Assembly: GCA_046483025.1 (NCBI GenBank) | Contig: JAWODZ010000126.1 | Location: 11,981-75,980 of the forward strand | DNA: 64,000 nt | Direction: 5' to 3' | From: a bacterium | Lineage (GTDB): Bacteria; Zhuqueibacterota; QNDG01; CAYUAG01 | In this document: piece after piece, positions 31,934-59,747 of the stretch | How the letters are laid out: every line of letters starts with the position of its first letter | Numbering within the stretch: the stretch's first letter is position 1 | Program-made: the position numbers and the translations under genes | Notes under the pieces: model-generated | Database searches by the model: none | Told to the model about the DNA's origin: nothing | Seen by the model: the letters and a program-made list of their open reading frames with translations, nothing else

Positions 31934-33847
31934 ATGAAATCAAAATATAAAAAAAGTCCCTATAACATATTCCAGTTTTTTAAAAATGTTCTGGATGCTA
32001 TGGCTGATCTGGTTTATATAGTTAACAAAGACAGAGAGATACAGTATATCAATCCTGCCATGAAAAAAGTATTCGGCTCCAAAGATGGTAAAAAATGCTA
32101 TGAATACCTTTCAGATTTATCGATGACCTGCCCCTGGTGCAGTCATGAAAATGTATTAGATGGTCATACCATTCGCAGGGAGTGGTATTGTCAAAAAAAA
32201 GATAGAATCTATGATGTAATTGAAACTCCTTTACATAATGAGAATGGTCAGGTTTTCAAGCTAAAAATTATGCGTGATATCACAGATCTAAAGAGATGGG
32301 AACAAAAACTTCAGAATGAGAGAGATTTATTGAAAAATATCATGGAAAACACCCATTCCATGATGGCATATCTGGATAAAGATTTTAATTTTATTCATGT
32401 CAATACAGCTTATGCAGAAGGTTCGGGTTATTCAGTTAAAGAGCTAATCGGCAGAAATCATTTTGATTTATTTCCCAATCAAGAGAATTATGCAATATTT
32501 AAAAAAGTCAGAGATACCGGCAACTCAATCGGGTTAAAAGATAAACCTTTTACATTTGCCCATCAACCGGAAAGAGGTGTTACGTACTGGAACTGGACAC
32601 TCAATCCCATAACAAATTCAGCTGGGGATACAGAGAATCTGGTTTTAACGCTGGAAGAAACCACCAAACGAAAAAGAATTGAAAATAAACTCAAGGAAAG
32701 TGAGGCCAGGTATAAACTTGCCCAAAAAGCTGCCCATATTGGTACCTGGGATTGGGATATCAAAACAGGCAAGCTTGTCTGGTCTGAAGAAGTTGAAACC
32801 TTGTTTGGGTTGCAAACCGGAGAGTTTAAAAATGATTATAAAGAATTTGTCAAACTAATCCATCCTGAGGACAGAGAGAAGGTTCAGTCAGCAATTGACA
32901 GATGCATTGAAGTAAAAGAAGATTATGATGTAGAACACCGTATAATCTGGCCGGATGGATCAATTCACTGGTTGAGAGAAATGGGGAATGTTATTTGTGA
33001 TGAAAAACAATTGGCAGTACGTATGCTGGGAATTGTTCAGGATATCACTGAACAAAAGGAAGCCCGAGAAATATTGGAAAACACCAGAGAGCAGTTGGAG
33101 CGAGGTGTAAAAAAGCGAACCGAAGAGCTGGAAAAACTCAATACAATATTACAGCAGGAAATTGCAGAACGTAAAAATTATCAAGAACAGCTCCACTCTT
33201 TAATGTCTCGTATGACAAAGATGGAAGAACAGGCGCGCAGAAGAATTGCCACCGGATTACATGATCGCATTGTTCAATCTTTGGCCCTGACCAAAATCAA
33301 ACTGGAGAAGATCATTGATAATAATGAGGATATAAAACTGAAAGACACCTTAGAAGAGATTCATCAGCTTGTGGATCAAAATATTAATGAGACCCGTTCC
33401 TTAACTTTTGAAATAAGTCCGCCTATACTGTATGAAATGGGTTTGGTATCGGCTATTGAATGGCTTGCAGATAAGATGAGCAAAAAGCACGATCTTGATA
33501 TTACTGTTAAAAACGATGGTGAATTCACATCCATGGATGATAATATACGCAATATTCTTTTTCAAACCGTTCAGGAATTACTGAATAACATTCAAGAACA
33601 TGCCGGAGCCAGCCAGGCAGAAATACAGATAGCAGAAGAAGAGGATAATATTGTAATTCAGATTAAAGATAACGGAGTTGGTTTTAAGGTATCGGAAGTA
33701 AAACCGGATATGTCCCGTTTGACCGGCTTTGGGCTTTTCAATATTAAAGAACGACTGAAATATGTAAAGGGTCAGTGCAGGATTACATCCGGGAAGAATC
33801 AAGGTACAACTGTTGTTATTAAAGCCCCCTGGAAAAAGAATAATTGA
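31934..33847 (+). CDS. PAS-domain sensor histidine kinase (HisKA_3 / NarL-type), copy 1
   Basis: Two or three PAS/PAC modules, coiled-coil linker, H-box HDRIVQSLA and HATPase_c (GFGL..). Paralogous to 55773-58067. Confidence 0.85.
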   Translation: MKSKYKKSPYNIFQFFKNVLDAMADLVYIVNKDREIQYINPAMKKVFGSKDGKKCYEYLSDLSMTCPWCSHENVLDGHTIRREWYCQKKDRIYDVIETPLHNENGQVFKLKIMRDITDLKRWEQKLQNERDLLKNIMENTHSMMAYLDKDFNFIHVNTAYAEGSGYSVKELIGRNHFDLFPNQENYAIFKKVRDTGNSIGLKDKPFTFAHQPERGVTYWNWTLNPITNSAGDTENLVLTLEETTKRKRIENKLKESEARYKLAQKAAHIGTWDWDIKTGKLVWSEEVETLFGLQTGEFKNDYKEFVKLIHPEDREKVQSAIDRCIEVKEDYDVEHRIIWPDGSIHWLREMGNVICDEKQLAVRMLGIVQDITEQKEAREILENTREQLERGVKKRTEELEKLNTILQQEIAERKNYQEQLHSLMSRMTKMEEQARRRIATGLHDRIVQSLALTKIKLEKIIDNNEDIKLKDTLEEIHQLVDQNINETRSLTFEISPPILYEMGLVSAIEWLADKMSKKHDLDITVKNDGEFTSMDDNIRNILFQTVQELLNNIQEHAGASQAEIQIAEEEDNIVIQIKDNGVGFKVSEVKPDMSRLTGFGLFNIKERLKYVKGQCRITSGKNQGTTVVIKAPWKKNN

Positions 33848-33859
33848 AAAGGATTTTTT

Positions 33860-34507
33860 ATGAAAACCAAAATCATACTGGCTGATGATCATCAGATAAT
33901 CAGGGATGGATTAAAATCTTTAATTGATAAGGAGACGGTTTTTGAGCTGTTGGCCGAGGCCAGTAATGGAAGAACCACTGTACAACTGGCTGAAGAGATG
34001 AAGCCGGATGTGGTGATTATGGATATCAGCATGCCGGGACTCAATGGTATGGAAGCAGCTCGTCAGATTTTACACACCAATCCTGATATTAAGATTATTG
34101 CTCTGTCAGTACATTCAGAAAAACAGTTTGTATCCGGAATGCTGCGGGCGGGTGCTTCTGCTTATTTGTTGAAAGACTGTGCCTTCCGGGAGCTTAAAGA
34201 GGCCATTAACTTGGTCAAGCAGAATCAAATTTATTTAAGTCCGAAAATTACCGGTTTAATTATTCATGATTACAAAGAAAAACTGATTAAAGAAGATCAG
34301 TCAGTATTCAATGTGTTAACCGGCAGAGAAAGGGAAGTGCTTCAGCTACTTGCAGAGGGGAAAACAACCAAACAGGTTGCCGGAGAGCTGTATATCAGTG
34401 TGAAAACAGTTGAAACTCACAGACAGAATATAATGAACAAATTGAGTGTATACAACCTTCCGGAACTGGTAAAATATGCAATCCGCCAGGGTATTGTAAG
34501 TCTTTAA
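33860..34507 (+). CDS. LuxR/NarL-family response regulator, copy 1
   Basis: REC domain (DDH...D in VIMDISMP...K) plus a C-terminal GerE/LuxR HTH. About 60% identical to 58091-58741. Confidence 0.9.
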   Translation: MKTKIILADDHQIIRDGLKSLIDKETVFELLAEASNGRTTVQLAEEMKPDVVIMDISMPGLNGMEAARQILHTNPDIKIIALSVHSEKQFVSGMLRAGASAYLLKDCAFRELKEAINLVKQNQIYLSPKITGLIIHDYKEKLIKEDQSVFNVLTGREREVLQLLAEGKTTKQVAGELYISVKTVETHRQNIMNKLSVYNLPELVKYAIRQGIVSL

Positions 34508-34605
34508 CCAACCTGAATAATTTAGGCTGGATTTTTTAACCTTCCATCCATTTTACAAGTATTTTTTATTTACAGATTAACATCTCATACTTTTTTTCTG
34601 TGAAA

Positions 34606-34622
34606 ATAGGGAATTTCCCTAT
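34606..34622. promoter_or_regulatory. 17-bp perfect palindrome ATAGGGAA-T-TTCCCTAT, 34 bp upstream of the second regulator gene
   Basis: Seen directly: 8-bp arms around a central T. Size and symmetry fit a LuxR/GerE-type dimer operator. Confidence 0.5.
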
Positions 34623-34655
34623 TGTATCTCTCTCCCAATATTTTTTTCTTAGGTT

Positions 34656-35288
34656 ATGAGTATAAACATTTTAGTTGCTGAAAATAATATTGATATGAGA
34701 AAACAGATTTGTGAACTTTTGAGAAATGAGAGGAGTTTCAAAATTATTGCTGAAGATGCTGATGGTATGTCAGCCGTACAGACAGCCAAAAGAATAAAGC
34801 CGGATATGGTTTTAATGGATATTGCCATGCCGGAGCTTAGTGGAATGGCAGCTACTCATCTTATCAAGGAATTTAGTGAAAAAATAAAGATAGTGGGTTT
34901 AACCATGTTTATGGAGATGAGTTTTGTGAAGAGTATGTTCAAGGCCGGGGCCTCGGGATATATTTTAAAGGATACAATGGTACGAGAACTTCCGGTGGCA
35001 GTGCATAAGGTCTCTAGAAATCAGATTTATTTCAGTAATAAGATTGAGACTATGATTCTTTCTGATTATTTAAAAAAAATGAATACAGAACAATATAATC
35101 GGCAACAGTATCTTTCTGAGAATGATATGAAAATATTACAGTGTCTGGCACGGGGAGAAACCTGGGAGGAAATAACTGAAAAAACAGGACTGAATTGTAA
35201 TACGGTTGAAATAATTCACCAAAAAATATTACAGACCTGGATAATTTTTATAAAATCATTGAATAGTCAGGGAAAGAACTATTTGTAG
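34656..35288 (+). CDS. REC-domain protein with LuxR-type HTH and atypical receiver (AENN replaces the DD acidic pair)
   Basis: [16 protein letters not shown]... The phospho-acceptor Asp (MDIAMP) and the conserved Lys are retained. C-terminal GerE-like HTH ([29 protein letters not shown]). Sits directly upstream of korAB. Confidence 0.7.
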
Positions 35289-35299: not shown

Positions 35300-37012
35300 A
35301 TGGTAAAAAAAGATGACATTTCTATAGTGCTTTGTGGTCCAGCAGGTCAGGGCATAAAGACTGCTGAACAGGTAATGGTGTCAATTTTTCGAAAAGCAGG
35401 ATATAATGTTTTTGCCACCAAAGAATACATGTCCCGTATCAGAGGAGGCAGTAATTCCACCTCTATCCGAGTATCATCAAAACAAGTGAAATCTTTTGTA
35501 GATCGCATGGATATCTTGGTTCCTCTCGACCGGGAGGCCTTGGAACATATTGAATCCCGTATTACCCCGGAAACAATGGTCATCGGGGAAAAGGAAATTT
35601 TACTAAAAGAAGATAAAAAGATAGATTATCAGATCCATGATGTAGCTTTAACTGAATTGGCCGAAGAAGCAGGTGGTAAAATTTATTCCAACATGATAGT
35701 AGTGGGAATTATAGCTGGTTTACTAGATATTGATAGTTCCTTGGTTCATACTTTTGTAGAAGAAATCTTCAGTAATAAAGAAAAAGAGATTGTAAAAAAG
35801 AATATTAGTGCTATTGATAAGGGATATAACCTCAGTTCCATTTTAGCAGCAGATTCCATCATTGAAATCAAAACCAAAGATAAGAACCAGATCCAAAAGG
35901 AGTTTTTAGTTAATGGTGGCGAGGCGGTAAGTATGGGAGCAGTAGCCGGAGGCTGTAATTTCATTGCTTCCTATCCTATGACTCCTTCCACCTCGGTTTT
36001 GACCTTTCTTGCCCAACATGGGAAAAAGTTCACTATTATTGCAGAGCAGGCTGAAGATGAAATAGCAGCCATTAATATGGTATTGGGTGCCTGGTATGCA
36101 GGAGCGCGGGGTATGGTGACCACCTCCGGAGGAGGATTTGCTTTGATGACAGAAGGATTGAGTCTTTCCGCCATGCTGGAGTCACCCCTGGTGATTCACC
36201 TTGCCCAGAGGCCGGGTCCGGCAACCGGGCTTCCTACCCGTACGGAGCAGGGTGATCTCTTGTTTGCTTTGCACGCCGGTCATGGTGAATTTCCCCGCAT
36301 AATTTTTTCCCCCGGTACTTTAGAGGATGCTTTCTTTTTAACCCAGAAGGCTTTTAATCTGGCAGATAAATACCAGATTCCGGTATTCATTCTCACGGAT
36401 CAGTATTTTATTGATTCCTATTACAACATCCGGAAGTTTGATCTATCGAAAGTTAAAAACCAACACTTTATAGTTAAAACCGGTAACGACTACCAGAGGT
36501 ATGAGCTTACAGACAATGGGGTTTCTCCCCGGGGAATACCGGGATATGGCGATGGTCTGGTGGCAGTGGACAGTGATGAACATGACTATGAAGGACATAT
36601 TACGGAAGATTTAGAGATCCGTGCCAACATGGTGGAGAAACGGTTAAAGAAGATGAACAGTCTGGTCAAAGAAGCATTAGTTGCGGAAAGAATTGGTCCG
36701 GATAACAGTGATACTCTGGTGATCTGCTGGGGATCGACAGTTCATATAGTGAAAGAGGCCCTGGAAAACATTGATGCAGATAAGATTGCTGTACTGTATT
36801 TCAAACAGGTCTTTCCGCTTTCTCCTCAGACAGCAGATATTCTTAATAAGGCAAAAAAGCTGATTATGGTAGAAAACAATGCAACGGCTCAATTTGCCCA
36901 GCTTTTGAAACTGCACCTAAATATTGATATTTCGATTAAAGTTTTAAAATACAATGGTCTGTGCTTTTCAGTGGAAGAGGTGGAAAAAGAATTACAGAAG
37001 GTAATCAATTAG
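35300..37012 (+). CDS. korA: 2-oxoacid:ferredoxin oxidoreductase alpha subunit (KorA/OorA type)
   Basis: 570 aa. Fused gamma-alpha organisation typical of two-subunit OFORs. Confidence 0.85.
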
Positions 37013-37018
37013 GAGAAC

Positions 37019-37876
37019 ATGATGAGTAAAAATGTTTACGACATGAGCGATATTGATGTGGCCTGGTGTCCGGGATGTGGTAATTTTACTATCTGGAAAG
37101 TGTTAAGGGAAACACTTTCGGAGATGAGCATAAAACCCCAGGAAGTAGTGATTGTATCCGGTATTGGTCAGGCAGCTAAGATGCCTCATTATTTACGCTG
37201 CAATGTATTTAACGGCTTGCACGGCAGAGCTTTACCTCCGGCTGTTGGTATAAAGTCAGTTAATCCTGAACTTACCGTAATTGCAGAAAGCGGAGACGGA
37301 GATATGTATGGTGAAGGAGGTAATCATTTTATGCACACCATCAGAAGAAATCCCAATATTACCAATCTTGTGCATAACAATATGGTTTACGGCTTGACCA
37401 AAGGCCAGGCTTCTCCCACCAGCCAGTCGGGATTTGTGACCCCGATACAGGTTGACGGTGTTACTCTGAAGCCTTTTAATCCGCTTGTGGTGGCAATTGC
37501 CCTGGATGCATCTTTTGTAGCCCGAACCAGCACCGTGGATACCGAGAAATTCAAGATGATCCTGAAAGAGGCAATAGAGCATCCCGGATATGCCCTAATT
37601 GATATTTTTCAACCCTGTGTTTCCTTTAACAAAGTCAATACCTACAAATGGTTCAAGGAAAACACCTATTATCTGGAAGAAAAGTATGATCCGAGGAACA
37701 AGGTTGAAGCCTTTACCCGGGCTTCGGAAACAGAAAAATTTCCTTTGGGAATTCTCTATAAAAATACTGATAAAAAGAGCTTTGAGCAAAGTCTGACAGT
37801 ATATCAGAAAGATAAAAGTCCTGTTATAAACAGATCCTTTAACCTGGAAAAGTTAGAGGAATTTATGAATAAGTAG
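37019..37876 (+). CDS. korB: 2-oxoacid:ferredoxin oxidoreductase beta subunit (TPP-binding)
   Basis: CPGCGNF motif at the N-terminus, TPP-binding GDG..Y region. An alternative ATG at 37022 has better SD spacing. Confidence 0.85.
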
Positions 37877-37914
37877 AATTTAGGATTGTAGAATGAATCT
37901 AAAGAATTAGGGAT

Positions 37915-37975
37915 TAGTGTCGCTGTCGCAATTGATTCCGATAGCGATTGCGATCCTGATACCGATAGTGATGAA
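37915..37975. repeat. hexamer-periodic GATnnn tract (intergenic)
   Basis: gtcgctgtcgcaattgattccgatagcgattgcgatcctgataccgatagtgatgaa. Confidence 0.55.
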
Positions 37976-38020
37976 AATTTAAAATTATTAATTGTAATAA
38001 TGATAAGAAAGGAGAAGAAG

Positions 38021-38245
38021 ATGAAAGTAACAATTGACAGAGATGAATGCACTATGTGTGCTTTATGTTGGGAAACCTGCCCGGATTTTTTTGAAGAAAG
38101 TCAGGAGGATGGGATGAGCCAAATAGTAGCAGAATACAGGGATAACGGTAATGTTGATCAGGGTGAAGCTCCTGAATCCTTGTATGATTGTGTAACTGAA
38201 GCAGCAGAAGAATGCCCGGTGGAGATTATTCACATTGAAGAATGA
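38021..38245 (+). CDS. small single-cluster ferredoxin
   Basis: CxxCxxCxxxCP (CTMCALCWETCP) plus a distal CP (EECP). SD aggagaag precedes the ATG at 38021; the track ORF starts at 38000. Confidence 0.75.
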   Translation: MKVTIDRDECTMCALCWETCPDFFEESQEDGMSQIVAEYRDNGNVDQGEAPESLYDCVTEAAEECPVEIIHIEE

Positions 38246-38313
38246 GCAGGTTAATACTAATACCGCGATAATGATTTATAATCAATCAATTAGACATAAG
38301 GGAGGAAGAAAAA

Positions 38314-38709
38314 ATGAAAAATTTAGGTGAACATATTCAGCAAGCAGATTGGAAAACAGAAAAACATGTACCAGTCATTGAATGTTCGGATAAGGTGAAA
38401 GCGGAAGAAGTATTCGAGGTAAAAGTAGGATTGGGTAAGGAAGTGGCACATCCCAATACTACTGAGCATCATATTCGCTGGATCAGTCTTTATTTTTATC
38501 CGGAAGGTGATAAGTTTCCTTATGAAGTCGGTCATTTTGAATTCAATTCTCATGGAGAAGCTGTAAAAGGGGCTAATGAAGGACCGGTTTATACCCACCA
38601 TCAGGTTGGAGTCAATATGAAAGTTACCAAATCCGGGACTTTGCATGCTCTGGCTTTATGTAATATTCACGGACTCTGGGAAAACAGTAAAGATATTGAG
38701 ATTGGTTAA
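38314..38709 (+). CDS. sor: superoxide reductase (neelaredoxin/desulfoferrodoxin centre II type, 1Fe-SOR)
   Basis: EKHVPV motif with the E-K pair, His ligands, and CNxHGxW (CNIHGLW). Confidence 0.85.
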   Translation: MKNLGEHIQQADWKTEKHVPVIECSDKVKAEEVFEVKVGLGKEVAHPNTTEHHIRWISLYFYPEGDKFPYEVGHFEFNSHGEAVKGANEGPVYTHHQVGVNMKVTKSGTLHALALCNIHGLWENSKDIEIG

Positions 38710-38825: not shown

Positions 38826-39851
38826 ATGGAGGCAATAATGATTGATATAAGTACTCAGTATATGGGAATAGAATTAAAAAATCCTGTCATTGTCGGAGCC
38901 AGTAGTTTGACATCGGATATGGAAACCATAAAACACATTGAAAAAGCCGGTGCTGGTGCTCTTGTGACCAAATCTCTTTTTGAAGAGCAGATTCAGCTGG
39001 AACGATATAAAATGGATGAGGACCGGGAGAAGTACAGCTATCGTAATGCGGAAATGATTACGGTTTTTCCGGAACAGGAACATGCGGGGCCCAAAGAACA
39101 TCTCTACTGGGTTGAGAAAACCAAGGAAAGTCTTTCAATTCCTGTAATTGCCAGCTTGAATGCAGTACATAAAGAAACCTGGATTGAATATGCCAAACTC
39201 CTGGAAGAGACCGGTGTGGATGCCCTGGAATTGAACTTTTATGCTTCTCCCAAAGAATTCAAAAAAGATGCGGAATCCATTGAAAAAGAACAGATCTCCA
39301 TAATAAAAAAGATCAAAGCAAAAGTTTCGATTCCGGTATCAGTGAAGCTGAGTTTTTTCTATACCAATCCTCTTCATTTCATTTCTCACATTGATAAAAT
39401 TAATGTTGACGGACTGGTATTATTCAATCGGTTTTTCCAGCCTGATATAGATGTATACAAACAAAAACACATTTCCCCTTTTCTTCTAAGTGAACGATCA
39501 GACAACCGTTTGCCTTTGAAATTTACCGGATTATTATCAGAGAATATCAAAGCAGATATTTGCAGCAGTACCGGACTCATCGAGGGTGAAGATGTGGTTA
39601 AAATGATCCTGGCTGGTGCAGCTTCAGTTCAGGTAGTGAGCACCCTGTACAAAAATGGTATTGATTATATCAGTAAGATATTAGAAAATTTACAATTCTG
39701 GATGGAACAGAAAGGATATACTGCCTTAAATGATTTTCGGGGAAAGATGAATAAGAAAAACAGTACTGATCCTTGGGTGTATATGCGTTCTCAGTATATA
39801 AAATTGTTGATGAATCCCAAAGATTTATTGGATAATTATCCTGTACCTTAA
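38826..39851 (+). CDS. dihydroorotate dehydrogenase-like TIM-barrel flavoprotein
   Basis: MGIELKNPVIVGAS N-terminus and overall PyrD class-1-like layout. The catalytic Cys position reads NFYASP rather than NxSCPN, so function is uncertain. Confidence 0.6.
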   Translation: MEAIMIDISTQYMGIELKNPVIVGASSLTSDMETIKHIEKAGAGALVTKSLFEEQIQLERYKMDEDREKYSYRNAEMITVFPEQEHAGPKEHLYWVEKTKESLSIPVIASLNAVHKETWIEYAKLLEETGVDALELNFYASPKEFKKDAESIEKEQISIIKKIKAKVSIPVSVKLSFFYTNPLHFISHIDKINVDGLVLFNRFFQPDIDVYKQKHISPFLLSERSDNRLPLKFTGLLSENIKADICSSTGLIEGEDVVKMILAGAASVQVVSTLYKNGIDYISKILENLQFWMEQKGYTALNDFRGKMNKKNSTDPWVYMRSQYIKLLMNPKDLLDNYPVP

Positions 39852-39866
39852 TCAAGGAGGGTTCTC

Positions 39867-40373
39867 ATGAAGGTTGCAATTTTATTGGAAAATCAGTATC
39901 AGGTTTTGGAAGTATGGTATCCCTTCCTCCGGTTTCGGGAAGAAGGCATAGAAACGGTTCTGGTGGGAACCGATAAAACAAATTACCTGAGTAAGGAAGG
40001 TTATCCGGCACAGGAAACAATTCCTGTTAAAAAGGCCAGGTCCAAAGATTTCGAGGGAGTAATTGTTCCGGGCGGGTATGCCCCTGATTACCTGCGCCGG
40101 CATGCAGAAATCAATCAATTTGTAAAAAATATATTCGAGTCCGGAAAACTGACAGCTGCTATCTGTCACGGCGGATGGGTACTGGTTTCAGCCGGGATAT
40201 TAAAGAAAAAAAGAGTTACCTCATTTATGGCCATTAAAGATGATATGATCAATGCCGGGGCAGAATATCTGGATCAGGAAGTAGTGGTTGATAATAATCT
40301 TATTACTTCCAGGAATCCTTATGATCTTCCTGCTTTTTGTAGGGAAATCATTTCCTTTTTAAAATCAGGGTAA
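39867..40373 (+). CDS. DJ-1/PfpI family protein
   Basis: Nucleophile elbow AICHGGWVL. 168 aa. Confidence 0.8.
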   Translation: MKVAILLENQYQVLEVWYPFLRFREEGIETVLVGTDKTNYLSKEGYPAQETIPVKKARSKDFEGVIVPGGYAPDYLRRHAEINQFVKNIFESGKLTAAICHGGWVLVSAGILKKKRVTSFMAIKDDMINAGAEYLDQEVVVDNNLITSRNPYDLPAFCREIISFLKSG

Positions 40374-40379
40374 AAGTGA

Positions 40380-41051: not shown

Positions 41052-41067
41052 ATAAGGAGTTTGAAAA

Positions 41068-42393: not shown

Positions 42394-42819
42394 ATGAAAG
42401 AAATTGGGATAATTGTGGATGTAAAAAAAGATAAGGGGATTGTGCGGCTGAGTTCGAAAAAGGAATGCAGGCATTGTTCTATGAATCAGCTTTGTCAAAG
42501 TACGGATCCCGGGAATAGAGTACTTGAAGTCGGACTTGGAGGGAAAAACTATCAGGTTGGAGATTGTGTGCAAATCATGACATCTGCTAAAAGCTATATG
42601 ACTGCTGCTGCATTGGTTTTCATGGTACCTCTGATTATTTCAATTGCAGGTTATGCTTTGGTGTATTCCATTACCAGGAGTCAGGGATGGGGAATTGCCG
42701 GTTTTACAGGATTCCTGGTTCTTTCCGGATTTTTTCTTTACTGGTTTGATAAAAGGTTTGGAAAGAAACGATTTTTCGAACCGCGTATCATTGGGAAAGT
42801 GAACAGGAGTCTGGGGTGA
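42394..42819 (+). CDS. RseC/MucC (SoxR-reducing system) family membrane protein
   Basis: N-terminal Cys cluster CRHCSMNQLC plus two C-terminal TM helices. 141 aa. Confidence 0.65.
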   Translation: MKEIGIIVDVKKDKGIVRLSSKKECRHCSMNQLCQSTDPGNRVLEVGLGGKNYQVGDCVQIMTSAKSYMTAAALVFMVPLIISIAGYALVYSITRSQGWGIAGFTGFLVLSGFFLYWFDKRFGKKRFFEPRIIGKVNRSLG

Positions 42820-48781: not shown

Positions 48782-48983
48782 AATTCGGTTAGAGTTGGAG
48801 GTTGTTATATAAGTTTACAAAAATGAAACCACAGGATACACAGAGAAAATAAAGAAGTTAAAAAGTATATGAATTAGTAATCCCCTTATTTTATTTTTTG
48901 CTCTGTGTATTCTTTATGGTTTTTTGTCATCCTTTAGTTTGTAAATCAATGTTAATGTAAAATTCGATAATAAAATACTGAAT

Positions 48984-49616: not shown

Positions 49617-49676
49617 ATTTTAATCCGGAACTTTACATGGTAAAATACTAATTTTTATATGTACGAGGAGAAATGA

Positions 49677-51926: not shown

Positions 51927-51975
51927 AAAAGTAAGATGTACATTATAAAACCTACTGAATATAAATGGCAAGGTT

Positions 51976-52614
51976 ATGAAGTTAACATTTCTGGGAACTC
52001 GTGGGTACATTGAGGCTCGAAGCCGCCATCACCGGATGCACAGTTCCCTGATGGTCAGCTATCAGGGTAAAAAAGTAATGATCGACTGCGGTGAGGACTG
52101 GCTGGGAGCAGTATATGATCTTCATCCCCGGGCTATTGTGCTCACGCATGCGCATCCGGATCATGCCGGGGGACTGAAGGGGGAAGCTCCCTGTCCGGTG
52201 TATGCTATCCGAGTATCCTGGGAAAAGTTAAAGGATTACGGAATCGAGAAGCGAGTAACTATACCGGAAAGAAAGGCGGTGACAATTGCCGGGATTACTT
52301 TCCAGGCTTTTCCCGTGGATCATTCCACCCGGGCTCCTGCAGTAGGGTACCGTATCAGCGCCGGAAAGGTGACGATTTTTTATGCCCCGGATCTGGTCTG
52401 GATCCATGACCGTACAGCAGCTCTTTCCGGGGTTAAGGTATACATCGGAGACGCGGCTACTATCAGTAAATCCCTGGTGCGCAAGATGGAGGGGAATTTA
52501 ATCGGGCATACTTTTCTTCGTACTCAACTGACCTGGTGTCAGAAAGAAGGAGTTCCCCGGGCCATATTCACTCATCTTGGCGCTGAGATTGTGGAGGGTG
52601 ACGAGCGTTCTTAA
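51976..52614 (+). CDS. MBL-fold metallo-hydrolase (truncated by an in-frame TAA; ancestral frame continues to 52698)
   Basis: HxHxDH motif LTHAHPDHAGG. After the TAA at 52612-52614 the same frame encodes KARIKKLAEERGVQVQIAWDGREEILR, which looks like the usual A.DG..I.L MBL C-terminus. Confidence 0.7.
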   Translation: MKLTFLGTRGYIEARSRHHRMHSSLMVSYQGKKVMIDCGEDWLGAVYDLHPRAIVLTHAHPDHAGGLKGEAPCPVYAIRVSWEKLKDYGIEKRVTIPERKAVTIAGITFQAFPVDHSTRAPAVGYRISAGKVTIFYAPDLVWIHDRTAALSGVKVYIGDAATISKSLVRKMEGNLIGHTFLRTQLTWCQKEGVPRAIFTHLGAEIVEGDERS

Positions 52615-53023: not shown

Positions 53024-53264
53024 ATTTTCTCCATATCAACGTTCAATTATATTTTGAAATTTACTTAATTAAATATATATAAAAATTTGGGAATAATCAA
53101 TCGTATTTATTTTTGTAGGTTAACATTTTTTCCGTATTAGATGTAAAGTATACCATTTGTTTAGTCAGATTCCCTGAAGAGAAAAATCAGAAATTTACCT
53201 ATTGAATTTTTAGCTTTTATATTCAAAATTTAACAATAAATAAAAGTATAAAACTAGAAAAAGT

Positions 53265-53699
53265 ATGAAAGGAGAAAATATGTATTGTCACAAAATACGA
53301 AATATTCCCATTTATCTGTTTCTGGTAATTGTTGTGATTCTGACAACCGGAATTCTTACTTTGTGTAAAAAGAAAGATCCCAGAGATCAATTTGTAGTAG
53401 AAGGGTATGATGTGGAAATTGTTGATCATGAATTTCACCCCAACAGCATAGATGTGATAAAAGGAAATGAAGTAGTGTGGGAAAATCTGGGGGATACTGT
53501 GCATACAGTTACCAGCGGATTTCCCGAGGATCCCGAACATTATTTTAACAGTGACATCATCAAATCGGGTGAGGAGTTTCACGTACGCTTTGACAGTCTG
53601 GGCTCTTTTGTCTATTACTGTCAATTTCATCCTGATTCCATGACCGGGATTGTGAATGTAGTGGAAGATACCTTAATCAAAAAACCAATTAGTGAATAA
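53265..53699 (+). CDS. cupredoxin (plastocyanin/azurin-like type 1 copper protein), probable lipoprotein
   Basis: Lipobox LTLC. Type 1 Cu ligands H..(n)..YYCQFHPDSM (Cys-His-Met). An alternative start at 53280 is possible. Confidence 0.8.
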   Translation: MKGENMYCHKIRNIPIYLFLVIVVILTTGILTLCKKKDPRDQFVVEGYDVEIVDHEFHPNSIDVIKGNEVVWENLGDTVHTVTSGFPEDPEHYFNSDIIKSGEEFHVRFDSLGSFVYYCQFHPDSMTGIVNVVEDTLIKKPISE

Positions 53700-53711
53700 A
53701 GAGAGGAATCT

Positions 53712-53900
53712 ATGATTTTAGGAATTATTTTTGTTTTAGCCGGAGTGTTAATTGCTCTGTTCCCCCAGTTGCTTGTCTGGATTGTTGCTATTTCTCTGAT
53801 TTTCTGGGGTTTATCTTTTATTTATCTTAGTTTTTATTACCGCAGGATTTCCCGCAGGTTTGACGATCCTTATATTGATTTCTTTTTTCGTTTGAAATAA
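53712..53900 (+). CDS. small two-TM membrane protein, hypothetical
   Basis: 62 aa, two hydrophobic helices. SD agagagg upstream. Confidence 0.45.
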   Translation: MILGIIFVLAGVLIALFPQLLVWIVAISLIFWGLSFIYLSFYYRRISRRFDDPYIDFFFRLK

Positions 53901-53910
53901 AATACCTGGA

Positions 53911-55512
53911 ATGGCTCAGATCGATCAAAAAGAGAAACAATTAAGCGAACAATTGCTCACCGATTTACAGTCACCGGAATCATACCCTTTTCCGGTTGAA
54001 GAAGTGAAGGTGATTCAAACCCACATTTCTTTTGTGGCTCTTACCTCCGACTGGGTCTATAAAATCAAAAAACCGGTGAATCTGGGATTCCTGGACTTCT
54101 CCACCCTGAAAAAACGACGAAAACAATGTGAAAAAGAAGTAAAACTGAATCGACGGTTGTGCAAAAATATGTATGAAGGGGTAGTACCCATTTCCAGAAA
54201 AAATGGTTCTCTGAAGATAGAGGAGGACAGCAACATTGTTGATTATGCCGTAAAGATGAGAAGACTTTCAGAGAATGGATTTTTAAACCGTCAGGTTAGA
54301 GAAGGCAATGTAGATAAAAAAGACATTGATCGGGTAGTGGAGCTTTTAAAAGAATTTTACCGGTCTCAGGAACCGGCAGCTGAACCAGCGGAATGGGGAC
54401 GTCCGGAGAACCTGATGATTTCCATTGATGAAAATTTCCAACAGACAGCCGGTTTTCAGGGTGATTTGTTAAAGGAGTCGGCTTTCCGGGCCATTCAGAC
54501 TTTTCAGAAACAGTTTATGTACTGCCAATCCGATCTTTTAAACCAGAGGAGAGCGGAGGGATGTATTGTAAACGGTCACGGGGATCTGCGTCTGGAACAC
54601 ATCCATCTTACTTCCCCAAATATAAATATTTTTGACTGTATTGAATTCAATGATCGTTTCAGGTTTATTGACATTGCCAATGACGTAGCCTTTTTGGCCA
54701 TGGATCTGGATTATCATAACTGTAGTGATCTGGCTGCATATTTTATCCGCAGAATGAGCAAGGCTCTAGCGGATTCCGATTTACCCCGGATGGTGGATTT
54801 CTATAAAAGTTATCGAGCCTATGTAAGAGCAAAAGTGCAGAGCCTGAAAAGCTGTGAACCTGAGGTTTCTGAGGAACAGAAGAAAAAAAGCAGAAAAGCG
54901 GCGGTTGATTTATTTCGTCTGGCCTTGAATTATTCCCTGAATGGATTGAAACCCATGGTATTGATAATCATGGGAGGAATTGGAACCGGAAAAACAACCG
55001 TAGCACAAGGTCTTGCGGATGCCCTGGGATGGGAGGTATTCCGATCCGACTGCCAGCGTAAACAATTGGCACAGGTTCCCTTACGGAAACGTCCGTTACC
55101 GGAAGAACGGGAAAAACTGTACTCTCCGAAAATGACTAAAAAAACCTATACCGCCCTAAAAGAAAAAGCAATTAAAAGAACACACAATGGAAAAAGTAGT
55201 CTGCTGGATGCCACGTACGGCAGCAAAGGGCTGCGTGATGATCTCCGAGAATCATTACATTCAGCAAATATTCCCTATTTTTTTGCTGAATTATCTGTGA
55301 GTGAAGAGAAGGTCAAGAAACGACTCCAGGAACGTGAATACACATCAAACCTTATTTCTGATGCCAGGATAGAGGATTTTCATCAACTGAAAAAAATGTA
55401 TGAATCACCAGATGCTCTGGAAGATGCCCGGCATTTCGTTGTTGACAGCGAACAATCTCTGGAAAATACTTTGTATGATATTTTAAACGGGACAATCCGT
55501 TTAAGAAATTAG
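53911..55512 (+). CDS. bifunctional aminoglycoside-phosphotransferase-like kinase domain / P-loop ATP-binding (AAA_33-like) protein
   Basis: N-terminal APH/protein-kinase-like fold (HGDLRLEHIHL, D..FLAMDLD). C-terminal Walker A LIIMGGIGTGKTTVA. Confidence 0.7.
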   Translation: MAQIDQKEKQLSEQLLTDLQSPESYPFPVEEVKVIQTHISFVALTSDWVYKIKKPVNLGFLDFSTLKKRRKQCEKEVKLNRRLCKNMYEGVVPISRKNGSLKIEEDSNIVDYAVKMRRLSENGFLNRQVREGNVDKKDIDRVVELLKEFYRSQEPAAEPAEWGRPENLMISIDENFQQTAGFQGDLLKESAFRAIQTFQKQFMYCQSDLLNQRRAEGCIVNGHGDLRLEHIHLTSPNINIFDCIEFNDRFRFIDIANDVAFLAMDLDYHNCSDLAAYFIRRMSKALADSDLPRMVDFYKSYRAYVRAKVQSLKSCEPEVSEEQKKKSRKAAVDLFRLALNYSLNGLKPMVLIIMGGIGTGKTTVAQGLADALGWEVFRSDCQRKQLAQVPLRKRPLPEEREKLYSPKMTKKTYTALKEKAIKRTHNGKSSLLDATYGSKGLRDDLRESLHSANIPYFFAELSVSEEKVKKRLQEREYTSNLISDARIEDFHQLKKMYESPDALEDARHFVVDSEQSLENTLYDILNGTIRLRN

Positions 55513-55772: not shown

Positions 55773-58067
55773 TTGAAATTAAACAAAAAAAAATTATATA
55801 CTCCGGAATTGATTGCTGCCATAATTGAAACTATCCGTGGGGCTCTCGTTATTTTAGATGAGGATCTCCGGGTTGTTCATGCAAATCAGTCTTTTTACAG
55901 CACGTTTAAAGTAAATCCTGAGGAAACGGAATCCTGTCTTCTATATGAAATAGGAAACAACCAATGGAATATTCCTAAGTTACGTGAAATCCTGGAGAAG
56001 ATACTTCCCCCAAAAAAAACTATGATGGATTTTCTGGTGGAACATGATTTTCCTCATATTGGCTACCGTATTATGAAGCTGAATGCCATACAGATTACCA
56101 GCAAAGAGAACAGGATGCCGCTGATTCTTTTGGTAATTGAAGATATAACGGACAGAAAAAATAAAGAAAGAGAACTTTATAGTTCCAGAAATCTGCTGCA
56201 ATCAATCATAGATCATGCCGGCTCTATGCTGGCCTATCTGGATAGGGATTTTAATTATGTTTATGTGAATAGACTTTATGCTGAGAACCTGGGATATACT
56301 ATAAAAGAACTGGTAGGACAAAACCACTTTAATCTGTTTAAAAAAACAGAAAATTATAAGGTGTTTAATAAAGTAAGGGAAACAGGAGAAACTGTTTACC
56401 TGCAGGATAGGATAAATCCCTTTATTCGGAATGTAAAAGAAATAAAATATTATAACTTTATTCTGTCTGCGGTTAAAAACAGTAAGGGTAAGGTGAAAGG
56501 TCTGATTTTAACTCTTATGGATACTACCCGGAGAAAAGAATATGAAGATAGCCTTGATGCCAGTGAGAAACGATATAAACTGGCCCAAAAGATGGGTGGG
56601 ATCGGCACCTGGGAGTGGAACATTGAAACCAATAAACTCACCTGGTCGAAGGAGGTTTCCCGGCTCTATGGATTAAAAAAAATTCCCTCAAACTTGACCT
56701 ATAAGGGTTTTCTCAGAATGGTTCATCATGAAGACAGAAGAGAAGTGGAACTGGCTGTGAACCGGTGTATTGAGGAGGAACAAGAATATAATGTGGATCA
56801 CCGTATCCGGTTACCTGATGGTTCCATTCACTGGCTGAGAGAAAAAGGGAATGTGGTGCGGAATAAAAACAAAATGGCTGAGAGAATGCTGGGCGTAGTA
56901 ATGGATATTACCAGCGAAAAGAAAGCAGCTTTGGAGAAAGCCAGGCTGGCTGCTATTGTAAACACCTCTACCGATGCAATTTTGCTCTATAGTTCCCGGG
57001 GTATTCTCATTCACTGGAATTCCGGGGCTCGTCTGGTGTTTGGATATTCGGAAAAGGAGATGGTGGGTAAATCTATTTTCAGATTGGTGCCGGAGAGAAA
57101 GATGGATGAGTTGAATAAAATATTAAAACAGACCCGAGAAGGCAAATCCATCCGATATCTGGAAACCATCCGGAAAAGAAAAGATGGTAAAGAAATTCAT
57201 ATTGCCCTTACTGTAACTCCCATTCGGAATGAGAAGGGAAAAGTCAGTGCCATCTCTACTGTTGAGCGGGATATTTCACATCGCAAGGAGGTGGAAGCAA
57301 AATCCAGAAAACAGCACCAGGAACTGGAGATACGGGTAAAGCAACGAACTGAGGATCTTGCCCGGAGTCGGGACAAGTTGCAGCAGGAAGTGGAAGAACG
57401 TCGTCATTATCAGAAAGAGCTTCAGTCATTGGCTTCTGGTATTTCTCTGGTTGAAGAAAGAGAACGTCGTAAAATAGCTACTTATTTACATGATCAGGTA
57501 GTTCAAAATCTGGTATATTCAAATTTAAAACTGGGTCAACTGGGTCAGATGAAGGTAAATACATCTCAGAAAAATATTTTGAAGGAAGTCTCAAAATATA
57601 TCCGGGAAACTATTGGTGATCTGCGAAACCTGACTTTTGAAATCAGTCCTCCCATTCTCTATGAACTGGGATTTATAAAAGCAGTGGAATGGCTGGCTCA
57701 GCAGTATCAGGAACAATGGAAAATATCAGTTGAAGTAAAATCTACCTCTCTTTCTGTTCCTCTTGATGAAACAAAGCGGGTAGTTTTATTTCAAAGTGTA
57801 CGGGAATGTCTGAACAACATATGTAAACATGCTCAGTCTGAGAAAAATAAAATTTTTATCCGAGAACAAAAAAATAACCTCGAAGTTGAAATAGTGGATG
57901 ATGGTGAGGGTTTTAATCCGGAAGAAGTAAAATTATCCAGTGCTTCAGCACATGGATTCGGCCTGATCAATATACGGGAAAGACTGGAATATTTGAGTGG
58001 TTCCCTGGAAATTCAATCCCAGCCGGGACAAGGAACCCGAATACGGATGCGGATTCCAATTAATTAA
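55773..58067 (+). CDS. PAS-domain sensor histidine kinase (HisKA_3 / NarL-type), copy 2
   Basis: Paralogous to 31934-33847 (for example MLAYLDRDFNYVYVNRLYAE... versus MMAYLDKDFNFIHVNTAYAE...) with one extra PAS module. H-box HDQVVQNLV. TTG start per the track. Confidence 0.85.
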   Translation: MKLNKKKLYTPELIAAIIETIRGALVILDEDLRVVHANQSFYSTFKVNPEETESCLLYEIGNNQWNIPKLREILEKILPPKKTMMDFLVEHDFPHIGYRIMKLNAIQITSKENRMPLILLVIEDITDRKNKERELYSSRNLLQSIIDHAGSMLAYLDRDFNYVYVNRLYAENLGYTIKELVGQNHFNLFKKTENYKVFNKVRETGETVYLQDRINPFIRNVKEIKYYNFILSAVKNSKGKVKGLILTLMDTTRRKEYEDSLDASEKRYKLAQKMGGIGTWEWNIETNKLTWSKEVSRLYGLKKIPSNLTYKGFLRMVHHEDRREVELAVNRCIEEEQEYNVDHRIRLPDGSIHWLREKGNVVRNKNKMAERMLGVVMDITSEKKAALEKARLAAIVNTSTDAILLYSSRGILIHWNSGARLVFGYSEKEMVGKSIFRLVPERKMDELNKILKQTREGKSIRYLETIRKRKDGKEIHIALTVTPIRNEKGKVSAISTVERDISHRKEVEAKSRKQHQELEIRVKQRTEDLARSRDKLQQEVEERRHYQKELQSLASGISLVEERERRKIATYLHDQVVQNLVYSNLKLGQLGQMKVNTSQKNILKEVSKYIRETIGDLRNLTFEISPPILYELGFIKAVEWLAQQYQEQWKISVEVKSTSLSVPLDETKRVVLFQSVRECLNNICKHAQSEKNKIFIREQKNNLEVEIVDDGEGFNPEEVKLSSASAHGFGLINIRERLEYLSGSLEIQSQPGQGTRIRMRIPIN

Positions 58068-58090: not shown

Positions 58091-58741
58091 ATGTCAATCA
58101 AGGTACTACTGGCAGAAGATCATCATATTATGCGTCAGGGCCTTCGCAGTTTATTAGAGGATCAATCCAATATAACTGTTGTGGGGGAAGCAAAAGACGG
58201 CCGGGAGACCATACAATTAGCCGGCAAGTTTAAACCTGATGTAATTGTTATGGATATAAGTATGCCTAACCTTAATGGAATGGAAGCTACTTACCAGATA
58301 CTGGAAGAACTCCCTGACGTAAAAATTATTGGATTATCGGTCCACTCTGATGAACAGTTCATTTCCGGGATGTTTCGGGCTGGAGCCTGCGGTTATCTGC
58401 TCAAAGATTGTGTAATAGATGAATTGATGAACGCTATTGATACAGTAGTACGAGATCAAATTTATATCAGCCCCTCTATTTCCAAACAGGTTATCAAGGA
58501 TTACCGACAATATCTTAAAAAAGATAAGGATTCCGTTTTTGAATTATTAACCGAGCGGGAACGAGAAGTGCTGCAGCTTATAGCAGAAGGCAAGTCCACC
58601 AAAGAGATTGCCGGTACTCTTTATGTCAGTGAAAAGACTGTAGCCACTCATCGACAGAATATGATGAACAAACTTGATATTTACAGTGTTCCAGAATTGG
58701 TGAAATATGCTATTAAAGAAGGGCTGATTTCCCTGAAATGA
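58091..58741 (+). CDS. LuxR/NarL-family response regulator, copy 2
   Basis: REC plus GerE HTH. About 60% identical to 33860-34507. Confidence 0.9.
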   Translation: MSIKVLLAEDHHIMRQGLRSLLEDQSNITVVGEAKDGRETIQLAGKFKPDVIVMDISMPNLNGMEATYQILEELPDVKIIGLSVHSDEQFISGMFRAGACGYLLKDCVIDELMNAIDTVVRDQIYISPSISKQVIKDYRQYLKKDKDSVFELLTEREREVLQLIAEGKSTKEIAGTLYVSEKTVATHRQNMMNKLDIYSVPELVKYAIKEGLISLK

Positions 58742-58876
58742 TTTCTAAAACACCCTCTCTTTTATCTCTCCCTTCGGCGAGCTCAGGAAAGGCCCTCAAG
58801 GGGGCATTCGTATTACTATTTCTTTCCCCTTGAGGGGAGATGTCCGCTGAAGGCGGACAGAGGGGTGTTTTTCCCT

Positions 58877-58899
58877 CCATTTTCCGTTACCCCGTTTCC
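58877..58899. repeat. dispersed repeat family B, copy 2, inside a 400-bp structured intergenic region
   Basis: tccattttccgttaccccgtttcc versus 16696-16719. Confidence 0.55.
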
Positions 58900-58977
58900 T
58901 TCCCCTAAACAGCGTCAACTTCAGAGTACTGTCTTCCGGCCTCTGAACGCTAATCCTCTCACGTTCTAATGCTCTCA

Positions 58978-59022
58978 GGTTCTTAAGTTCTTGTATCTTG
59001 ATTCTTGAGTCTTGAGTCTTCC
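58978..59022. repeat. tandem 7-8-bp repeat (TCTTGAG-like, 6 units)
   Basis: ttcttaagttcttgtatcttgattcttgagtcttgagtcttcc. Confidence 0.6.
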
Positions 59023-59141
59023 TTTTTCCATATCAGACTTTCTGAAGTCAATTATCAGAAACTTCCTGATTGAATTTTTCTTTTAAAATCAATACTTATA
59101 AGTATACTATAGGTTATTGATAAAAAGAAAATGGAAAAGAT

Positions 59142-59747
59142 ATGCCCAAAATTAAAATTTTAGTTGCTGATGATCATGAGATTGTACGTAAGGGGCTCCG
59201 GGAACTGATTAATCAGCAATCTGATATGGAAGTAGTATCTGAGGCAAAGGATGGAGAGGATGCGGTTCGTATGGTCCGTCAATATGCTCCAGATGTTGTG
59301 TTAATGGATGTGGTCATGCCCAACACCAATGGAATCGAGGCAACAAAAGAGATCAAATCTCAATTTCCACAAACCCGTATTATAGCCCTCTCTATTTATG
59401 CTGATCGTTCTTATGTTATTCAGATGTTCAAAATGGGGGTGTCGGGATATTTGCTCAAGGAAAGTGCTTTTAATGAATTGATTAAGGCTATTCGAAAAGC
59501 TCTTAATAATCAGGTTCATCTCAGTTATTTACTTTTTAAAGGAGTTTATCTGGAATTTCAATCTCTCATGCAGAAAGATACAGATCACAATGTACAAATA
59601 TTAAATCAAAGAGAGCAGACAGTTTTAAAGGAATTATCCGATGCGAATTCCATGAAAGAAATTGGGGAAAGAATGAATACCTCGGTTGATAGTATTGAGT
59701 CAGTGATTGAGAGTATTTTAAATAAGTGGATGTTAATTAACAGATAA
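59142..59747 (+). CDS. REC-domain protein with degenerate LuxR-type C-terminus (third member of triad 2)
   Basis: ILVADDHEIVRKGL...VLMDVVMP. C-terminal helix-turn-helix-like EIGERMNTSVDSIESVIESILNKW. Confidence 0.7.
   Translation: MPKIKILVADDHEIVRKGLRELINQQSDMEVVSEAKDGEDAVRMVRQYAPDVVLMDVVMPNTNGIEATKEIKSQFPQTRIIALSIYADRSYVIQMFKMGVSGYLLKESAFNELIKAIRKALNNQVHLSYLLFKGVYLEFQSLMQKDTDHNVQILNQREQTVLKELSDANSMKEIGERMNTSVDSIESVIESILNKWMLINR

Follow-up and report, generated by a model that had tools for sequence, protein, structure and literature searches.

Two copies of a three-gene regulatory cluster lie about 20 kb apart in a 64,000-nucleotide stretch of DNA from an uncultured bacterium (contig JAWODZ010000126.1 of assembly GCA_046483025.1, positions 11,981 to 75,980), to which we refer as the window. 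Each triad encodes a PAS-domain histidine kinase (HK), a NarL/LuxR-type response regulator (RR) and a third protein, here called T, in which a receiver domain (REC) is joined to a truncated LuxR-type helix-turn-helix (HTH). Do the two triads frame an acquired island, or does each of them control genes of its own? A first-pass annotation had read them as a segmental duplication whose copies now enclose an accessory redox and copper island, perhaps as a hierarchical two-sensor circuit. We arrive at a different reading, to which we give a probability of roughly 0.6: the triads would be two ancient paralogous stress cassettes, in which a kinase-RR pair controls T-led operons through a palindromic operator and T feeds back on that control.

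The two triads (31934-35288 and 55773-59747) are collinear, and their open reading frame (ORF) positions, Pfam domains and E-values bear out the earlier statement that they are true paralogues in the same order. HK1 (31934..33847, plus strand) is a cytoplasmic kinase of 637 aa in which three PAS domains (PAS-1, aa 1-125; PAS-2; PAS-3) precede HisKA_3 and HATPase_c domains, as judged by Pfam, domain-by-domain comparison and cysteine conservation. HK2 (55773..58067, plus strand) has 764 aa, a TTG start and four PAS domains (PAS-a; PAS-b, aa 133-261; PAS-c; PAS-d) ahead of the same two kinase domains. The HisKA_3 and HATPase_c scores are 36 and 53 bits for HK1 and 28.6 and 56 bits for HK2, all above the Pfam cut-offs. 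RR1 (33860..34507, plus strand; REC 96.8 bits, GerE 77 bits) and RR2 (58091..58741, plus strand) are canonical NarL/LuxR-type regulators, with REC scores of 96-97 bits, GerE scores of 74-77 bits and a complete four-helix HTH. None of the six triad proteins reaches an equivalog cut-off in NCBIfam. The paralogous pairs match one another with E-values of 2e-90 (HK1/HK2), 4e-100 (RR1/RR2) and 1e-35 (T1/T2).

RR1 and RR2 are 60% identical over 215 aa, their full length, as the first-pass annotation had estimated. For the kinases it had given about 50% identity with shared PAS blocks, and this holds only across 275 aa comprising two PAS domains (49%); the kinase cores are 39-41% identical and the N-terminal PAS domains are unrelated (21-25%). 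Compared domain by domain, PAS-2 pairs with PAS-b (45%), PAS-3 with PAS-c (55%) and core with core (41%), and PAS-1, PAS-a and PAS-d are each confined to one kinase. PAS-b (window 56169-56555) is missing from all four HK2 orthologues (P0230, P0232, P0236 and P0240) and shares 43-45% identity with PAS-2 in all HK1-type kinases. Since PAS-b is equidistant from all HK1 orthologues, it points to an old gain or loss of a domain and not to recent conversion, and this gain or loss evidently explains much of what had been taken for shared PAS blocks. The third genes, put earlier at about 35% identity, are in fact 30% identical, and each of them is nearer to RR1 and RR2 (35-37%).

In a blastn comparison, the DNA of the two triads matches over just two segments of 65-68 nt, with 72-75% identity. 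Identity between RR1 and RR2 at third codon positions is 0.37, and RR1 is as close to P0326, an RR from another lineage, as it is to RR2 (60% in both cases). Given the near absence of DNA similarity, the low third-position identity and the equal nearness of RR1 to RRs of other lineages, the triad duplication is ancient. A recent segmental duplication is ruled out by the scarce nucleotide similarity between the copies. In neighbor-joining trees, T1, T2, RR1 and RR2 form clades with 98-100% support, the RR1 and RR2 clades each at 100% bootstrap, and RR1 and RR2 are sisters at 59-90%.

The spacing of the genes suggests where transcription begins and ends. The HK-RR gaps measure 12 and 23 bp and the RR-T gaps 148 and 400 bp, and the T1 stop lies 11 bp from the korA start. 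Behind RR1 stands a hairpin with a U6 tract (34508..34545, plus strand; -8 kcal/mol, z = -1.5), a possible terminator of the HK1-RR1 unit, and behind RR2 a long GC-rich hairpin with a U tract (58747..58880, plus strand; -55.3 kcal/mol, z = -2.55; terminator-like sites at 58792 and 58860), which probably ends transcription of the HK2-RR2 unit. Each triad would consist of two transcription units, an HK-RR pair and then a T-led stress operon with its own predicted promoter. The triads do not bracket the genes between them, as had been supposed: a box-bearing promoter follows each HK-RR pair, and T is the first gene of the stress operon downstream. A sigma-70 promoter scan returned sites near the shuffled expectation and a terminator scan returned sites modestly above it, and neither scan is informative in DNA this AT-rich.

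Palindromic boxes, which are putative operators, occur in three promoters of the window, with the forms TAGGGAATTTCCCTA and TCAGA-N3-TCTGA. Before T1, palindrome search and spacer comparison identified ATAGGGAATTTCCCTAT-TGTAT (34606..34627, plus strand), a perfect palindrome of 17 bp that lies 50 bp before the start; its core, TAGGG-N5-CCCTA, occurs only there in the window, against 0.08 occurrences expected. Before T2 there is a dual box (59033..59075, plus strand), in which TCAGACTTTCTGAAG (59033-59047) is followed after 6 nt by ATCAGAAACTTCCTGATTGAAT (59054-59075; also written ATCAGAAACTTCCTGAT), with 94% conservation over 50 nt in the related loci L020 and L022. A dual box of much the same form stands before the cupredoxin gene (53165..53207, plus strand; TCAGATTCCCTGAAG at 53165-53179 and ATCAGAAATTTACCTATTGAAT at 53186-53207) and is 90% conserved over 48-50 nt in the same two loci. 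The distance from the boxes to the T start is approximately 50-110 bp. A degenerate 22-mer derived from the three sites has three matches in the window, in all three promoters, against 0.23 expected, a test that is circular. A further palindrome upstream of HK2 (55651-55669) was dropped as not conserved in L020/L022. Tandem repeats, CTAATCCTCTCACGTT twice and TCTTGAG 3.6 times, fill 58950-59020, between the RR2 hairpin and the T2 boxes.

When the spacers of the window were compared pairwise with those of relatives, the box regions were the sole conserved blocks. The T2 box is found in otherwise unalignable spacers of 400, 624 and 1336 bp (window and L020/L022), and the T1 box is 89-100% conserved over 23-27 nt among spacers that include those of L018, L016 and L105. 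A relaxed pattern, AT[AC][AG]G[AG]N5[CT]C[CT][TG]ATTG, is present upstream of T in the T loci that cover this region (12 counted, including the two of the window), with the exception of L108, where only a degenerate box precedes T and the pattern lies instead on the minus strand upstream of HK. L110 and L111, from lineages outside the definition of the pattern, carry it before T-like genes as well. In total, it precedes T-type genes in eight loci or contig groups from seven lineages. In contrast, no match was observed on either strand of 784,115 bp from 94 unrelated NarL-RR loci. The box is specific to T-type loci. A TCAGG-type box is also present in L105 and L108 before a divergently transcribed gene with a type IX secretion system (T9SS) tag beside the kinase. 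An identical 19-mer, ATCAGGAACTCCCCGATTG, was observed in three lineages (L105 9834-9852, minus strand; L107 780, minus; L108 2988, minus; L110 1625, plus); it faces the minus-strand T9SS-tagged gene beside the kinase in L105/L107 and L108 and a T-like gene in L110, and it suggests further members of the regulon.

According to Pfam, alignment, an AlphaFold 2 (AF2) model and Foldseek, T1 (34656..35288, plus strand) consists of a REC domain and a truncated LuxR HTH of three C-terminal helices without alpha10, ending ...ILQTW... T2 (59142..59747, plus strand), on the basis of Pfam and alignment, combines a REC domain with a complete phospho-pocket and a truncated, acidic LuxR-like tail ending ...ILNKWMLINR. 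GerE scores fall below the cut-off of 23.5 bits in both (18.1 bits for T1, 22 bits for T2), and the alignments end at profile position 41-44 of 57, that is, they are cut at helix 3. Where canonical RRs have ...N-K-L and then alpha10, the aligned T1 and T2 families end with I-L-(Q/N)-x-W and the last LuxR helix is absent. The AF2 model of T1 (pLDDT 91.6) comprises a receiver, a linker helix and three C-terminal helices, and its top Foldseek matches are the full-length NarL-family regulators DesR, VraR, LiaR and NarL. The C-terminal domain of T is 11-16 residues shorter than that of canonical RRs (5-16 with the tails of the window T1 and of L016/L105 included), and its net charge is -4 to +2 (-2 for T2) as compared with values of 0 to +7 for canonical relatives. 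In the T2 family, the K/H/R contacts of the recognition helix have been lost. In the receiver, D55, T/S83 and K105 are invariant across all T proteins, and the acid pocket is DD or ED in T2 and most T1 orthologues; E9-N10 in place of D-D is confined to the window T1 and its closest relative, P0002. Since the phosphotransfer residues are kept, we rejected the possibility that T is a pseudo-receiver.

A profile search of 1.84 billion cluster representatives ranked T2, T1 and P0085 first, and further proteins of approximately 200 aa with the same truncated end are among the top 150 (P0321, P0325, P0338, P0354, P0396 and P0397). These additional members end with (I/V)xxxW, and the subfamily also includes P0003-5 and P0081-85; the T of L108 (P0327) is without the C-terminal Trp. 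To judge by these features, T is a small undescribed subfamily, for which we propose a definition at two levels. The protein has about 200 aa, with a REC domain, a linker helix, three C-terminal helices, no alpha10 and an (I/V)(I/L/V)xxW end; the gene lies beside an HK-RR pair and/or oxidative-stress genes and behind an AT[AC][AG]G[AG]N5...ATTG box. T1 and T2 both have all of these properties. Databases annotate T everywhere merely as "response regulator transcription factor", and Pfam detects the receiver alone. Look-ups of the exact sequences of T1, T2 and P0001 gave no record. A genome-contig scan with T1 returned generic NarL regulators only, and a metagenome scan with the T1 alignment returned one true orthologue (in L025) together with 79 generic loci, which were reused as background for the box. 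Orthologues in the T1 family are 52-57% and 84% identical to T1, those of T2 are 73-82% identical, and those of HK1 51-72%.

Synteny in relatives was the check that the first-pass annotation itself had called for, and it went against the framing of an island: the orthologues of each triad occupy a conserved setting peculiar to that triad. The context of triad 1, with a minus-strand AMP-binding gene followed by HK, RR and T, is found in L018, and L025 has T-korA-korB-ferredoxin as in triad 1. L105-107 have the order HK-RR-T-cupredoxin-GSDH-ferredoxin-SDR-superoxide reductase (SOR)-superoxide dismutase (SOD)-DHODH-like-OsmC with korAB just upstream, and L108/109 have HK-RR-T-hemerythrin-phosphoketolase (XFP)-FtsH. 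In L016/017, from the same genome as L108 (GCA_964537715.1), T is followed by cupredoxin, GSDH, multicopper oxidase (MCO), SOR, pirin and SOD. Likewise, the order around triad 2 is kept from MCO (L020/L021) or cupredoxin (L022) through AAA33-HK2-RR2-T2-Usp-unknown-FtsH, so that L020/L022 share the gene order of the right half of the region, and T2 is 74% identical in the relatives that conserve this order. Other T-like loci read korAB-T-TonB-SOR-NiSOD (L110), HK-RR-T-Fur-rubrerythrin (L111) and RR-T-DegP-BON (the P0325 locus). T adjoins SOR, SOD, rubrerythrin or korAB in several lineages, and relatives combine such triads with genes for redox, copper and oxidative-stress functions. Among the relatives' contigs that we read, none has adjacent triads with no genes between them. 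At 981-1560 of L016, remnants of a frameshifted phosphoglucomutase gene and of an RR1-type regulator stand directly before a T1-type gene that is intact, as is its TAGGG box; a complete HK-RR-T cassette is present on another contig of that genome (L108/L109).

The two kinases also differ in what they might sense. In HK1 orthologues, PAS-1 has an invariant C55-X10-C66-X2-C69 motif (CX10CX2C), with a fourth Cys in four of five, and HK2 has no such motif. NreB kinases bind an iron-sulfur (Fe-S) cluster through CX2CX11CX2C ([4Fe-4S]) or CX2CX11C ([2Fe-2S]) in their N-terminal PAS domain (PMC13478379). The cysteines of HK1 occupy the corresponding part of the PAS fold, and we infer that PAS-1 may bind an Fe-S cluster or a metal. 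The closest PDB sequence to PAS-1 is a 132-residue chain of a sensor kinase (9wex), with an E-value of 0.02 that is not significant. Membership of HK1 in the NreB family was rejected on its Cys spacing and on the lack of significant sequence or fold similarity.

The established features of the locus are paralogy, operon geometry, the conservation and specificity of the operator, the architecture of T and oxidative-stress synteny. The mechanism that we propose adds to them, by inference, the protein that binds the box, the sign of the regulation, the signal and the role of T. The kinase would sense a cytoplasmic redox, oxygen or metal cue, HK1 by way of the Cys3(+1) site in PAS-1 and HK2 by way of its other PAS domains, and would phosphorylate its own RR. 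A dimer of the RR would then bind the operator, which abuts TTG, possibly the -33/-35 element of a promoter, and activate the T-led operon. The operons under such control would be T1-korAB-ferredoxin-SOR with the genes behind it, cupredoxin-AAA33 and T2-Usp-(FtsH). Induced with its own operon, T, as an intact or nearly intact receiver with an HTH that is missing the dimerization helix, would feed back through competition for phosphoryl groups or through mixed dimers with the RR. A bolder form of this scheme is more doubtful, although we consider it conceivable: T may represent an unrecognized class of phosphorylatable feedback modulators, receivers with a three-helix LuxR remnant that are induced by their cognate RR and then re-tune it. 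In combination with a PAS kinase that carries a Cys3 (Fe-S or Cu/Zn) site, such a modulator might form an oxygen or reactive oxygen species switch protecting ferredoxin-dependent (reverse tricarboxylic acid (TCA) cycle) metabolism, with cross-talk at hybrid operators such as the cupredoxin box.

Several observations weigh against the cassette model. The terminator behind RR1 is weak. The Cys loop of PAS-1 is modeled at low confidence and has no specific structural match. The copper ATPase/MCO block is tied to either system by position only, with no box before it; an additional tie is that MCO and cupredoxin genes lie behind T1-type genes in relatives. The monophyly of T is moderate: the exact clade was recovered in 22% of replicates of the large tree, and a near-pure T clade in about 55%. 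Strict monophyly of all T proteins, which the small tree did not recover either (18%), was set aside as a claim, and a single origin of T is likely but not proven. The division of the boxes into TAGGG and TCAG(G) types does not track the recognition helices of the RRs, which are near-identical in RR1, RR2 and the L111 RR. The TAGGG class is found only before T1-family genes, which keep a K-T-V-E..H.K helix, and the TAGGG box persists in L016 even though the adjacent RR is a pseudogene.

These last observations suggest that T1 may bind its own promoter, and binding of the TAGGG box by the T1 family is a serious alternative to binding by the RR. On this account, which we hold to be unlikely but worth keeping in mind, T proteins, or at least those of the T1 family, bind the boxes, so that T1 autoregulates through TAGGG-N5-CCCTA as a second output of the kinase and the RR binds TCAG(G)-type boxes. 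It would explain why the putative recognition helix of the T1 family, ending [TS]W, is conserved and distinct from the one in the RRs, and why L105 and L108 pair an RR1-clade RR with the TCAGG-type box before the divergent T9SS gene, with a TAGGG box before T in L105 and a degenerate one in L108. The retention of T and box beside a decayed RR in L016 fits as well, but the intact RR1-clade RR on the L108 contig of GCA_964537715.1 could serve L016 in trans. Furthermore, T lacks alpha10, the helix by which LuxR-type DNA-binding domains dimerize on palindromes, and its C-terminal domains are neutral to acidic. The corresponding helices of the T2 family and other T-like proteins are highly variable while the boxes are conserved, which argues that it is the RR that binds there.

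The reading as a horizontally acquired redox/copper island framed by duplicated triads, with redox and copper sensed in a hierarchical circuit, we regard as improbable. It draws on the collinear paralogous triads and on the content of the genes between them, which are mostly redox- or metal-related by Pfam (korAB, ferredoxin, desulfoferrodoxin, DJ-1, CDGSH, two YHS proteins, P-type ATPase, DUF302, MCO and cupredoxin). They are not entirely so, as had been stated, since a methyltransferase, an MBL-fold hydrolase, an AAA_33 kinase-like protein, unknown proteins, SHOCT-like peptides and a degenerate toxin-antitoxin remnant are also encoded there. That remnant (52498-53023) and differences in gene content from L020/L022 near the MCO and MBL genes point to some local turnover. 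The kinases differ in their N-terminal PAS domains, which makes two different signals plausible, and this element of the earlier proposal we retain. However, the copies are old, as the near absence of DNA similarity between them attests, and their orthologues sit among conserved neighbors of their own. The genes are all co-directional and tightly spaced, and a box follows each HK-RR pair, so that the two triads lead into separate operons and enclose no single unit. The hallmarks of an island are absent: a tRNA scan of the window found no tRNA and an Rfam scan was empty, Pfam scans of the region found no integrase or other mobility genes, and no flanking DNA repeats were observed. GC content is 0.36-0.47 inside the region and 0.26-0.43 outside it, with no sharp compositional edge. 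Together with the recurrence of the gene order in relatives, these results rule out a mobile genomic island.

That the triads are unrelated housekeeping two-component systems 20 kb apart by chance, with T a decaying RR duplicate that has no role, is very improbable: NarL-type systems are abundant, no curated equivalog model is reached, T evolves faster than the RR (orthologues of T1 are 52-57% identical, those of RR1 73-87%) and the window T1 has lost one acid-pocket Asp, but at least seven lineages keep T as an intact ORF in which D55, K105 and the C-terminal Trp are invariant, the structure model of T1 is confident, boxes and stress-gene neighborhood are conserved across T lineages, and decay would not keep a specific truncated architecture.

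The cassettes are set in an AT-rich window (GC approximately 0.38) with nearly all genes on the plus strand. Housekeeping and reverse-TCA genes lie 5' of triad 1 (LepA, aconitases, ATP-citrate lyase and phosphoglucomutase), followed by a T9SS-tagged PKD protein and the minus-strand AMP-binding enzyme. The uncultured bacteria that carry the cassette probably belong to the FCB group, to judge by the T9SS-tagged proteins that they encode. Also upstream of triad 1, a stretch with a GC content of 0.26-0.29 (12960-15000) carries a DNA methylase gene (N6_N4_Mtase) beside UmuD/UmuC-like genes (10933-12825) and is possibly a small foreign insertion with no relation to the triads.

Behind T1, Pfam, spacing and synteny with L025 place korA and korB (2-oxoacid:ferredoxin oxidoreductase), ferredoxin (38000-38245) and desulfoferrodoxin/SOR (38314-38709) in one run (35300..38709, plus strand). 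Genes for a DHODH-like protein, DJ-1/PfpI, a Fer4_19-CDGSH protein and a YHS-permease follow (38826..42234, plus strand; Pfam) with gaps of 6-16 bp, and a DHODH-like gene likewise lies downstream of the T1-type triad in L105. GATACC/CGATAG-type hexamer or 12-mer repeats occupy the spacers after korB (37933-37972), SOR (38756-38788) and the YHS permease (approximately 42260-42300), and most of the 12 near-matches to GATACCGATACCGA (2.2 expected) are in these spacers.

The copper/metal block (42394..52614, plus strand), in which a pattern search of the window found no box, begins with RseC, a YHS-flavoprotein, a P-type ATPase and an unknown protein of 238 aa (Pfam). It continues, according to Pfam and ORF translations, with three SHOCT-like peptides, DUF302, a Met-rich secreted protein, a methyltransferase, the MCO and an MBL hydrolase (plus strand). 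The three peptides are paralogous small membrane proteins around DUF302, located in apparent intergenic gaps (46881-47084, 47089-47340 and 47780-48016), with a SHOCT-like C-terminus (ALD[IV]LK.RYA.GEI...E[FY]); an orthologous SHOCT ORF is called in L022. The secreted protein (48275-48781; 168 aa) is extremely Met-rich, with MxxM runs and no Pfam family, and the MCO (49677-51926) has a Met-rich insert and a C-terminal extension of approximately 200 aa. These features are consistent with periplasmic copper handling. The sole minus-strand ORFs of the region are at 52498-53023. One is an antitoxin-like ORF of 78 aa; the second has a PIN-toxin-like start (MNNSYVTDTMALILQLEKR...) and then runs antisense into the MBL gene, which is why we call the pair a degenerate toxin-antitoxin remnant. 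L020 and L022 are without this remnant and have a glycosyltransferase just upstream of their cupredoxin region (in L020, between the MCO and MBL genes).

Cupredoxin, a DUF3096-like membrane peptide of 62 aa (53712-53900) and the AAA_33 kinase-like protein (53265..55512, plus strand; Pfam) complete the interval, and the same three genes precede the HK2 orthologues in L020 and L022. Behind T2, Usp, an unknown protein of 143 aa and FtsH (59766..62762, plus strand; Pfam) follow in the same order as in relatives. Usp orthologues in L020 and L022 begin with ATG-TTA-CC(C/T) (MLPIKKILCPTDFS), and the window has ATA-TTA-CCT in frame at 59766 (ILPVKKVLCPTDYS), a change of the start from ATG to ATA (Usp 5' region 59748-59834). 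The first canonical start is a GTG at 59835, and its use would drop the first beta-strand. The ATA could be a rare start codon, the mark of a pseudogene or a sequencing error in a metagenome-assembled genome (MAG).

In strict or facultative anaerobes, the known control of oxidative stress runs mainly through PerR, OxyR, Rex and sigma factors. If our reading is correct, a cassette placed before SOR, SOD, rubrerythrin and 2-oxoacid:ferredoxin oxidoreductase genes adds a kinase-based route to stress control, in lineages known solely from metagenomes. As a distinct subfamily with a fixed genomic position, T would offer a concrete system for how an output-impaired second regulator shapes a two-component response, and the operator sequences and gene sets could be used to predict regulons in related MAGs. 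We replace the earlier view of an island framed by duplicated triads with one of two stress cassettes related by ancient paralogy. A limited literature search for kinase-based regulators of superoxide reductase and for truncated LuxR regulators found no description of the cassette.

Its parts can nevertheless be compared with known systems. NreBC(A) of staphylococci and Bacillus licheniformis pairs a cytoplasmic PAS-HisKA_3 kinase with a NarL-type regulator that acts on a GC-containing palindrome (PMC8139620, PMC5694512). The cassettes share the kinase and regulator types and, in HK1, the location of the cysteines in the N-terminal PAS domain, and many database neighbors of the RR and T carry the JGI label NreC. 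Unlike NreBC, however, they have the CX10CX2C(+C) spacing in HK1, which also has two more PAS domains, no NreA/GAF gene and an extra truncated regulator; their predicted targets are oxidative-stress and ferredoxin-oxidoreductase genes and not nitrate respiration.

BldM-WhiI of Streptomyces is a two-regulator system with an atypical second regulator. In CmrRST of Clostridioides difficile, CmrR and CmrT are of the OmpR family, and CmrT joins a pseudo-receiver to a DNA-binding domain that is complete (PMC12548384). As in both of these systems, for which mixed dimers have been proposed or shown, a canonical regulator is accompanied here by an atypical one of the same family, and as in CmrRST one kinase is encoded with two such regulators. 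The deviation lies elsewhere, in that the receiver of T is essentially intact (T2) or one Asp short (T1) and the output domain is truncated instead; T also stands behind an operator of its own and leads the target operon, unlike in CmrRST.

RcsB is modulated by the auxiliary LuxR-type partners RcsA, BglJ and GadE (PMC5651002, PMC5758874). The role proposed for T is similar, that of a second LuxR-type protein which would modulate the activity and specificity of a NarL-family regulator, but the Rcs partners have a complete HTH and no phosphorylatable receiver, the reverse of T with its receiver and incomplete HTH. Phosphate-sink receivers, such as CheY1/CheY2 of Sinorhizobium, are single-domain proteins in which a second receiver competes for the phosphoryl groups of the kinase. 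Competition of this kind by T would give the proposed negative feedback. Unlike these sinks, T keeps a three-helix C-terminal domain with an invariant Trp, whose conservation implies an additional interaction. In these comparisons, the cassette resembles a NarL-family two-component system with an auxiliary second regulator, and it is set apart by the domain of that regulator that is degenerate, by the fixed position of T as operon leader behind the operator, by the Cys motif and by the targets.

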